Shown: positions 42,236-43,266 of the stretch, in pieces
Layout: every line of letters starts with the position of its first letter
Numbering within the stretch: the stretch's first letter is position 1
Source of the DNA: Enterobacteria phage ECP2307
Reading direction: 5' to 3' (one strand)
Sequence record: PP461118.1
Length of the DNA: 64,000 nucleotides
Notes under the pieces: model-generated
What the model saw: only the letters and a program-made list of their open reading frames with translations
The model's database searches: none
Told to the model about the DNA's origin: nothing
Position numbers and translations under genes: made by a program

Positions 42236-42823
42236 ATGAAACTGTTAAATATCAAAATCACTGGTACTCGTCCTTTCCTGAGCCACGCTGATACGCTGTC
42301 AGACCCATTAAACCCTCTGACAAAATATCACAAGTCTCTGTCCAGTAAACGTAAAAAGACTGACGAAGACTACGCGCTCTTAGCAGAAAGTCAACTGGTA
42401 ACTTCTTGTTACTACGATGAGCAACTTGGTTTTGTTATGAACGGTGAGATGATTGAGGCTTGTATCAAGTCTGGTGCAAAACTCAACAAACTTGGTAAGG
42501 TAATTGACCGAGCCATTATGCTGACAGATGTAGTCTTCCCAATGACTATTAAGAACTGTCCAGCAAACCCACAAGAACTTGCTAAGAATCCAGACTTTAT
42601 CTATGCTAAGTCTGTTAAGATTGGTACAGCACGAGTTATGAGTTACCGTCCAATCTTCCGTGACTGGTCTGTAGAGTTCGGTTTGATGTTCGATGAAGAG
42701 CAAATCACCAGAGAGGAACTTCTGATGGTTCTGGAAAATGCTGGCAACCTTTGTGGTGTAGGTGATTGGCGTCCACGCTTTGGTCGTTTTTCTGTAGAAG
42801 TTATTTCAGAAGGTAACGTTTAA
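42236..42823 (+). CDS. hypothetical protein (195 aa), first gene of bracketed cassette
   Basis: ATG after GTGGAG SD; no recognised motif. Confidence 0.6.
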
Positions 42824-42825
42824 TT

Positions 42826-43266
42826 ATGAATACAAAAGCATTAGCAGCAAAGTTTAGTTACGGTGACACTGTATCACATTCTGAGATGGATACCTTCTTA
42901 GGTATTGTGAAGCCAACTTATCAAGGTGACATTGTTAAGTACGAAGATGAAATGAAAGCTTATGCACTTACACGTCTAAACCGACTTGAGAAGTTTATTG
43001 AAAAGCTTCTTAAAGAAGAGAAGATTTATCTGGTTGCTTCAATGGGTGTTGGTTATCGTGTGGTTGAACCTAAGCATCAAGCAACTATTGCAAAACGCAA
43101 AATGTCTGGTAAGATTGGTCGTGCTTTAAAGCAAGCTACTCAAGCAATTGAGAATGTGAATACTATGGCACTTAGCCATCAAGAACGTTCACGACTGATT
43201 GAACAGCAAAACCACTTAGCTGCTATGAAAGCTAACATTAACAAGCAACGTAGAAAACCTTTCTAA
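42826..43266 (+). CDS. hypothetical protein (146 aa), second gene of bracketed cassette
   Basis: ORF; basic C-terminus. Confidence 0.6.
   Translation: MNTKALAAKFSYGDTVSHSEMDTFLGIVKPTYQGDIVKYEDEMKAYALTRLNRLEKFIEKLLKEEKIYLVASMGVGYRVVEPKHQATIAKRKMSGKIGRALKQATQAIENVNTMALSHQERSRLIEQQNHLAAMKANINKQRRKPF

Follow-up and report, generated by a model that had tools for sequence, protein, structure and literature searches.

A type II VIPR system with guides predicted to act against an integrated satellite in the Felix O1-like phage ECP2307

The stretch of DNA analysed here, hereafter the window, comprises 64,000 nucleotides (nt) of Enterobacteria phage ECP2307 (PP461118.1) and carries at positions 42,236 to 43,266 a pair of adjacent genes flanked on both sides by modular repeats. 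We conclude with high confidence that genes and repeats together make up a type II VIPR system with all its parts, which belongs to the SUSP1 clade and is lodged in a Felix O1-like phage. VIPR (Viral Interference Programmable Repeat), an RNA-guided type of DNA recognition reported only recently, reads its targets through a non-contiguous guide code and silences them, and it is a suggested ancestor of the CRISPR RAMP proteins (2026, bioRxiv 10.64898/2026.04.26.720920 and 10.64898/2026.04.26.720927). As described in these preprints, a VIPR system has three kinds of component: Vipr, a minimal protein of RAMP fold; Vap, an accessory protein; and guide RNAs (vrRNAs) composed of 9-16 YNNGG repeats and a structured 3' tail. 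Vipr forms a polymer along the vrRNA with one protomer per repeat, sequestering GGY and presenting NN, and the filament binds double-stranded DNA, reading it as NNxNNx..., and represses transcription via a triplex R-loop. The VIPR system was already known and its type example, that of phage SUSP1, is nearly identical to the one in the window, which leaves the published picture unchanged and adds one more well-resolved member to it. What is gained is a guide-to-target map, including a perfect match in a predicted non-coding control region of a satellite, together with evidence of cassette exchange between phages and a testable discrimination between helper and satellite alleles. Moreover, two hypothetical proteins and a set of odd repeats, without an assigned function in the annotation of more than 200 Felix O1-like genomes, can now be interpreted, with predicted targets.

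By analogy with the 98-99% identical SUSP1 system, in which vrRNAs co-purify with Vipr and binding of the ribonucleoprotein represses transcription (VIPR preprints), we propose that four vrRNAs of approximately 85-105 nt, each with 10-14 YNNGG pentamers and a pseudoknotted 3' tail, would arise from the two intergenic regions. Vipr would polymerise on each of them, one protomer per pentamer, burying GGY and exposing NN; the resulting filament would bind double-stranded DNA as NNxNNx..., skipping one base per repeat, presumably within an R-loop, and would block transcription there. Vap1 would act as an accessory booster, probably by binding DNA; co-expression of vap1 enhanced VIPR-mediated protection (VIPR preprint). 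At least three of the four guides appear to be aimed at a ~12-kb satellite integrated in Escherichia coli that has its own versions of the baseplate and tape-measure genes of its helper, which argues for the locus being an anti-parasite weapon of the phage; satellite phage are also the natural targets in the SUSP1 clade, where two of 20 targets fell outside the satellite (VIPR preprint). Silencing of the satellite's non-coding control region, of a gene for a protein of 109 amino acids (aa) and of the baseplate gene would protect the phage's own assembly and would in this way benefit the phage.

The Vipr and Vap1 proteins

The two genes, separated so closely that vap1 begins 3 nt past the vipr stop, are:
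42236-42823, plus strand: vipr, encoding a 195-aa RAMP-fold protein (match to PDB 36pp; PHROG 4652)
42826-43266, plus strand: vap1, encoding a 146-aa Vipr-accessory protein (PHROG 5926)

The longest open reading frame (ORF) at vipr spans 200 aa (42221-42823), and the ATG at 42236, which lies 11 nt downstream of a GGAG ribosome-binding site, gives 195 aa; this start is confirmed by the sequence of PDB 36pp, which opens with MKLLNIK. Together with the ORF listing, this showed that the coordinates given for both ORFs in an earlier note, written by a model that had seen only the DNA, were exact. The same note had described the products as unknown proteins without an assignable motif, a description that has to be abandoned. 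A search of the PDB returned a sole and decisive match for ORF1, covering its full length: chain D of 36pp, the "SUSP1 Vipr protein" (E=2e-128). ORF1 is identical to SUSP1 agp039 at 191 of 195 positions (98%) and keeps all of the functional residues named in the structural preprint, namely H17, K33, R39, E71, M72, K82, G87, K88, R138, C173, D177, W178 and R179. The protein ends in the G-loop CGVGDWR, a glycine-rich loop of RAMP type, and has, with its RRM core and thumb, the minimal RAMP architecture expected of a type II VIPR. ORF1 is accordingly Vipr, a RAMP-fold RNA-guided DNA binder of solved structure, and ORF2 is Vap1, with 145 of 146 residues identical to SUSP1 agp038 (99%) and its gene adjacent to vipr as in other type II systems.

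General family resources were of little help with these proteins. Pfam, NCBIfam and PADLOC gave no meaningful match for either of them, and PHROGs placed both in families of "unknown function" only. The Vap1 family comprised 234 clusters of proteins of roughly 110-205 aa among 1.84 billion representative proteins searched with HMMER, and none of these clusters had a meaningful Pfam match. An AlphaFold2 model of Vap1, built with 65 family members, reached a pLDDT of 96.4; it predicts a small N-terminal part, winged-helix-like in topology (order H-E-H-H-E-E), and behind it a long helical hairpin, and is compatible with the preprint's label "predicted DNA-binding, WH-like". Neither protein showed homology to structural or core replication proteins, and the unit belongs to neither class. 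A CRISPR-Cas system was also considered and rejected, since the neighbours are a ligase gene, small ORFs and a dihydrofolate reductase (DHFR) gene, no CRISPR-type array was found, and neither protein matched a Cas family in PADLOC or NCBIfam.

Guide RNA genes and their decoded targets

A modular repeat family of four copies occupies both intergenic regions, and NNGGT pentamers in tandem form its core. With at most one mismatch allowed, the pattern GGTNNGGTNNGGTNNGGT had 22 overlapping matches against 0.07 expected, all on the plus strand and in exactly four places of the 64 kb, of which two precede the gene pair and two follow it. That modular repeats flank the pair had been recognised from the start; their reading as insulating or recombination brackets gives way to one in which they are the guide RNA genes, that is, the half of the system that determines specificity. 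Each of the four arrays lies in a region flanking vipr and falls within the 9-16 tandem YNNGG repeats of a vrRNA gene. The modules are as follows:
41897-41935, plus strand: leader module type 1, an imperfect hairpin CATCACTTAAG...CTTAAGTGATG, directly 5' of the vrA repeats
41936-42031, plus strand: vrRNA-A (vrA), 12 YNNGG repeats at 41936-41995, pseudoknot tail at 41996-42027, code TCnCTnTCnAAnTTnCAnGTnGGnAAnTGnTAnGT
42029-42067, plus strand: leader module type 2, CCTTTTTAAAAGGTCTTTAAGAGGGTCTTTTAATGAGG, at the vrA-vrB junction
42063-42163, plus strand: vrRNA-B (vrB), 12-13 repeats to 42127, pseudoknot tail at 42128-42159, code CTnGCnAGnCGnCTnCCnCGnATnATnGTnGAnAT
43294-43332, plus strand: leader module type 2, ahead of vrC
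43328-43433, plus strand: vrRNA-C (vrC), 13-14 repeats to 43397, pseudoknot tail at 43398-43430, code TCnAAnTCnATnCTnATnCCnGCnTCnGTnAAnGAnAT
43431-43469, plus strand: leader module type 1, ahead of vrD
43470-43555, plus strand: vrRNA-D (vrD), 10 repeats to 43519, pseudoknot tail at 43520-43551, code GAnGAnACnCGnATnTAnCTnATnTTnAT

The tails, of approximately 32 nt, were aligned in a small sample of eight sequences representing four tail types (four from the window, three from SUSP1 and one from a satellite). Scored as an H-type pseudoknot of 4 + 7 base pairs, 90.9% of the cells were paired and nine of the 11 pairs showed compensatory changes; none of 500 shuffles reached the pairing, the number of compensated pairs or the covariation score, and displacing the partners by 1-3 columns lowered pairing to 30-44%. 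Both stems differ wholly between tail types: one stem reads GTAG/CTAC, GTGG/CCAC or AAGG/CCTT, and the other stem reads AGTCTCA/TGAGACT, GGTAG/CTACC, TAATCG/CGATTA or GGCAG/CTGCC. The guides of the window consequently possess the structured 3' tail of type II VIPR, while no family of Rfam 15 matched them. Array and tail together measure 85-105 nt, in agreement with the vrRNAs of ~100 nt found by small-RNA sequencing of SUSP1 (2026 bioRxiv VIPR preprint), and by analogy this phage would express all four of them.

For decoding, the published 1-nt skip rule was applied, each GGY being replaced by one wildcard; both DNA strands were scanned, and an NN match of at least 80% was taken as the threshold (VIPR preprint). 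A BLAST search with the repeat module against complete E. coli genomes detected chromosomal vrRNA-like sequences in 151 genomes, and these sit in a ~12-kb satellite inserted in yecE or next to tonB. Besides several small ORFs, this satellite has genes for a serine recombinase, an HNH endonuclease and baseplate and tape-measure proteins. Related elements occurred in 568 of 5,426 E. coli genomes, and 19 satellite loci served as the panel for the target scans (L numbers below are our identifiers of loci and records). The baseplate protein of the satellite shares 79% of its amino acids with the window protein at 57191-56427, and its tape-measure protein is 30% identical to that of the window. Because it carries homologues of these two phage proteins, the satellite is a plausible parasite of this phage.

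Three of the guides exceeded the threshold in this competing mobile element (vrA at 100%, vrC at 85% and vrB at 83%). The best match was that of vrA, with 24/24 in the satellite of E. coli ZJ3920 (L013 12791-12825; site TCACTTTCTAACTTTCACGTAGGAAATTGTTAAGT), 23/24 in L009 and L012 and 19-21/24 in most other loci, always at one conserved non-coding site near the right end of the satellite. For vrC we found 22/26 in O157:H7 Vac_07.1 (L009 9804-9841; site TCAAAGTCAATGCTAATACCTGCATCAGTGAAGCTTTG), with its first 11 repeats matching at 22/22, and the same target was present in nine metagenomic satellite contigs; it lies antisense to the gene for the 109-aa protein, so placed that NN falls on codon positions 1-2 and the skipped base is the wobble base. 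The best match of vrB, 20/24, is in the satellite baseplate gene (L007 3875-3909; site CTGGAAAGACTTCTACCACGAATGATGGTGGTGCT). When the order of the NN dinucleotides was shuffled, the observed score was reached by 0 of 200 shuffles for vrA, 0 of 200 for vrB, 1 of 200 for vrC and 144 of 200 for vrD. As a positive control, the guides of SUSP1 and ASO1B matched the same satellites at 22/24, 27/30, 21/22 and 23/26. The mismatches are concentrated in the final one or two repeats (TGAGG TATGG), which are nearly constant across vrRNAs, and they are so likewise in the SUSP1 and ASO1B guides; these last repeats probably add little specificity.

Within the window itself the best matches were 16/24 (vrA), 16/24 (vrB), 18/26 (vrC) and 15/20 (vrD), that is, 67-75%, and as all of these maxima stay below 80%, no self-targeting is predicted. 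One of these sites is the phage counterpart of the vrB target:
56697-56731, minus strand: the phage's own baseplate-gene site CTGGAAAAGCCGCGACTACGAATGATGGTGGTGCA, homologous to the vrB satellite target, matched at 16/24 and predicted to be unbound

With 20/24 in the satellite and 16/24 in the phage allele, vrB would therefore separate the satellite from its helper. Two satellites deviate at this site: L016 3617-3651 equals the phage's own 35-nt sequence, and L019 1606-1640 is two bases off it. Such helper-like sites, possibly acquired by gene conversion from the helper, may let some satellites escape vrB. In sum, the unit appears accessory, conflict-related and self-contained, as the earlier note had supposed when it proposed host-interaction or anti-defence cargo, whereas the predicted opponent is an E. 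coli-integrated phage satellite rather than host defence.

Several wider searches were less informative. In IMG/VR neither the exact full-length guide patterns nor a shortened version of the one for vrD had a match; likewise, there was none for the full vrD pattern in GTDB genomes or for the full vrC pattern in JGI metagenomes. A 20-base vrB pattern matched a metagenome-assembled genome of the PVC group (L015) in the GTDB genomes and was dismissed, about one such match being expected by chance. A BLAST search with the idealised vrC target and its flanks returned only the L006-type allele with the same five mismatches, and it was set aside as uninformative because the flanks dominate the ranking.

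Setting of the locus and alternative explanations

The source phage is, from its sequence, a Felix O1-like myovirus of the genus Felixounavirus: the 1.9-kb stretch around the locus shares 91-96% identity with more than 100 felixounaviruses of Escherichia and Salmonella, and 237 phage records were matched. The gene order is DNA ligase (40693-41832), the VIPR locus, small genes and, at the end, DHFR and thymidylate synthase. Three further signals accompany the genes:
41839-41866, plus strand: sigma-70-like promoter TTGACA-16-TATACT (11/12 consensus), directly after the ligase stop and 5' of the first vrRNA
42191-42220, plus strand: weak promoter-like site (9/12 consensus), just 5' of vipr
43278-43303, plus strand: intrinsic-terminator-like GC hairpin AGCCTCTTCGGAGGCT (hairpin located at 43278-43293) with a T-run, 12 nt past the vap1 stop

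All three are consensus matches only. The block with the first of them recurs identically in SUSP1, where it precedes the upstream vrRNA, and in ASO1B, and the site probably functions as a promoter. The pair had been credited with a promoter and a terminator of its own; candidate sites do exist for both, yet promoter-like sites are no more numerous in the region than in shuffled sequences.

A number of observations weigh against a fully working anti-satellite system. Five of ~49 repeats have a degenerate GG (CAATG, TATAG and TGCTG in vrC, TGTTG in vrB, CTATG in vrD), and substitutions in GGY abolished silencing in reporter assays (2026 bioRxiv VIPR preprint). The matches of vrB and vrC reach only 83-85%, and the base skipped by vrB is codon position 1, where the wobble position predominates in the preprint. 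The best score of vrD in the 19 satellite loci, 15/20, equals background. No promoter or processing sites were identified for vrC and vrD, both of which lie 3' of the terminator-like hairpin, and fold searches with Vap1 did not confirm a DNA-binding role.

Part of these observations would fit a VIPR system that serves, partly or mainly, the regulation of host genes or the fight against host defences, with vrD and perhaps other guides aimed at the chromosome or at defence islands. Besides lacking a match in the satellite loci, vrD had none above background in IMG/VR or in the GTDB representative genomes; the two SUSP1-clade targets outside the satellite point the same way, and a satellite-borne vrRNA described below matches the REP repeats of the host, showing that chromosomal targets are possible. 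This explanation is weakened by the three guides that map to the satellite with strong statistics and by the lack of any link to a defence or anti-defence family in PADLOC, and we consider it unlikely.

Less probable still is a decaying or inactive copy, some or all of whose guides no longer work. The degenerate repeats, the imperfect matches of vrB and vrC and the orphan vrD are what such a copy might display; but neither protein is damaged, each is 98-99% identical to its experimentally active SUSP1 counterpart and keeps all functional residues, the vrA target is perfect, and the locus is conserved in the 237 phage records. Furthermore, internal degeneracy is common in functional vrRNAs (2026 bioRxiv VIPR preprint), and the mismatches fall mostly in the semi-constant last repeats, as in SUSP1 and ASO1B. 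An anti-satellite VIPR system accounts best for the whole of these data.

The notion that the arrays are iterons belonging to an origin of replication or to a partition site, with the proteins as their initiator or binder, draws on the position of the locus inside the replication block (DNA ligase to DHFR/thymidylate synthase) and on arrays flanking genes as iterons often do, but it is effectively refuted by a near-identical protein solved as an RNA-bound filament, by arrays that are strand-specific and followed by a covarying RNA pseudoknot, and by variable dinucleotides that decode to another element and differ between close relatives with a freedom intolerable for iterons. A TRAP-like ring protein acting on a 5' untranslated region, G-quadruplex-forming repeats and Rho-utilisation sites on the opposite strand were each dropped once ORF1 had been recognised as Vipr, the tails had been seen to covary and targets had been decoded.

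Related systems, cassette exchange and satellite-borne guides

We decoded the locus in seven phages (that of the window, P54, E9, BPS15Q2, TP1, ASO1B and SUSP1). Slot by slot the tails are identical or 1-2 bases apart, while the NN codes differ or swap as whole cassettes, the combination of hypervariable NN with conserved GGY and tail that characterises type II VIPR. The vrC of the window is common to P54, BPS15Q2 and TP1, and its vrD to P54; its vrB equals that of E9 except for one dinucleotide, the E9 version scoring 21/24 at the satellite site when counted from the sequences; and its vrA is unique among the seven. This mixing of guide cassettes between phages implies frequent recombination within a constant framework of leaders and tails. 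The arrays are laid out 2 + 2 (upstream + downstream of the gene pair) in the six felixounaviruses (window, ASO1B, P54, E9, BPS15Q2 and TP1) and 1 + 3 in SUSP1. In ASO1B (L001 2986-3498) and SUSP1 (31503-32030) a gene for an HNH homing endonuclease directly follows the DNA polymerase gene, an insertion that appears to be absent from the window, as only small ORFs are listed at 39625-40690. The nearest GenBank relative of the region is Escherichia phage vB_EcoM_P54 (PV390658.1, L029; 95.5% identity, 88-kb genome). This record is filed under Straboviridae/Tequatrovirus and is probably mislabelled, since its sequence at the locus is Felix O1-like.

The closest known system is that of SUSP1 (NC_028808, an Escherichia phage of the genus Suspvirus), which has the same order of ligase, vrRNA, vipr (agp039), vap1 (agp038) and vrRNAs, the same upstream promoter block, three tail types, the leader modules and the same satellite family as target. 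In contrast to this Suspvirus, the felixounavirus of the window differs in its array layout and in all four guide codes, and it lacks ~190 extra nt that SUSP1 has between the ligase gene and the promoter. The type II VIPR of a Pseudomonas fulva prophage, compared by description only, shares Vipr, Vap1, GGY/NN vrRNAs and the R-loop triplex according to the preprints, but it belongs to a temperate prophage and its guides target resident prophage regulators instead of a satellite. From the same source, the Cas7-family RAMP backbones of Class 1 CRISPR-Cas (Cascade/Csm) resemble VIPR in the RAMP fold, the G-loop, the thumb and the use of one protomer per RNA increment, and Cascade/Csm and CRISPR interference also resemble it in periodically flipped bases and in RNA-guided DNA binding able to silence transcription. 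Unlike CRISPR-Cas, the locus of the window has no repeat-spacer array, cas1/cas2 or nuclease, and its non-contiguous guide sets 2 of 5 RNA bases against 2 of 3 DNA bases and requires no protospacer adjacent motif. The CRISPR-Cas system that Vibrio phage ICP1 directs at PLE is likewise phage-encoded and RNA-guided, and its natural target is a chromosomally integrated satellite that parasitises the phage; it differs in being a bona fide type I-F system with spacer acquisition and target degradation, whereas the VIPR of the window would, by analogy with SUSP1, only bind and repress. We know of no acquisition machinery for this type of locus.

Satellites have vrRNA genes too. They carry a promoter, a vrRNA and a terminator of their own without a vipr gene (L005 14995-15125 in E. 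coli EC12), and 53 complete genomes hold similar vrRNA genes, with an identity of at least 95% in 28 of these. The commonest satellite guide seen, CCnGAnAAnCGnAGnGCnTCnGGnAAnTTnGCnAT, is identical in the divergent satellites L005, L011 (~10880-10980) and L022 (~9640-9740), with the same NN code in L027. Its first 11 dinucleotides match a dispersed intergenic repeat at 22/22 (host site L005 19585-19619); this repeat occurs in 16 to more than 40 places in each of the 5,426 E. coli genomes, and the idealised target had 100% identity over nt 1-33 in 3,934 records. We take the repeat to be the REP/BIME consensus (GTAGGCCTGATAAGCGTAGCGCATCAGGC). The match lies outside the window and may be new, as the main text of the VIPR preprint does not mention a REP-type match of a satellite vrRNA. 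If such a guide works, infection would load the Vipr of the phage onto the REP elements of the host, and the guide would either act as a decoy, drawing Vipr off the anti-satellite guides, or serve the satellite as a means of reprogramming the host chromosome.

The vrRNA genes of the satellites end in the same tail as those of the phage; as no vipr gene accompanies them, the satellites would have to borrow the Vipr of the helper. It is a tentative idea, to which we give clearly less than even weight, that Vipr is shared in a three-way conflict in which vrB also discriminates between satellite and phage baseplate alleles and some satellites may have escaped. Other satellites bear other guides, such as the vrRNAs of L026 (E. 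coli O121) and L028 (ECONIH5), the ECONIH5-type guide scoring 21/24 in other satellites ~30 nt downstream of the vrA target site. The targets of the L026/L028 guides are:
L012 12919-12953
L007 12398-12432
L018 11547-11581

Since the ECONIH5-type target lies near the vrA site, phage- and satellite-borne guides converge on one non-coding segment of ~100 nt, possibly an important cis element (a promoter, an origin or a pac site, for example). A last resemblance between the two elements was noted at the beginning of the window, where positions 1-240 hold a dense array of short CTTAACA/CTAACA/GTAACA motifs: 25 nt at window 27-51 are identical to L013 12341-12365, in a long non-coding region of the satellite with similar motifs, which points to regulatory or packaging signals common to helper and satellite.

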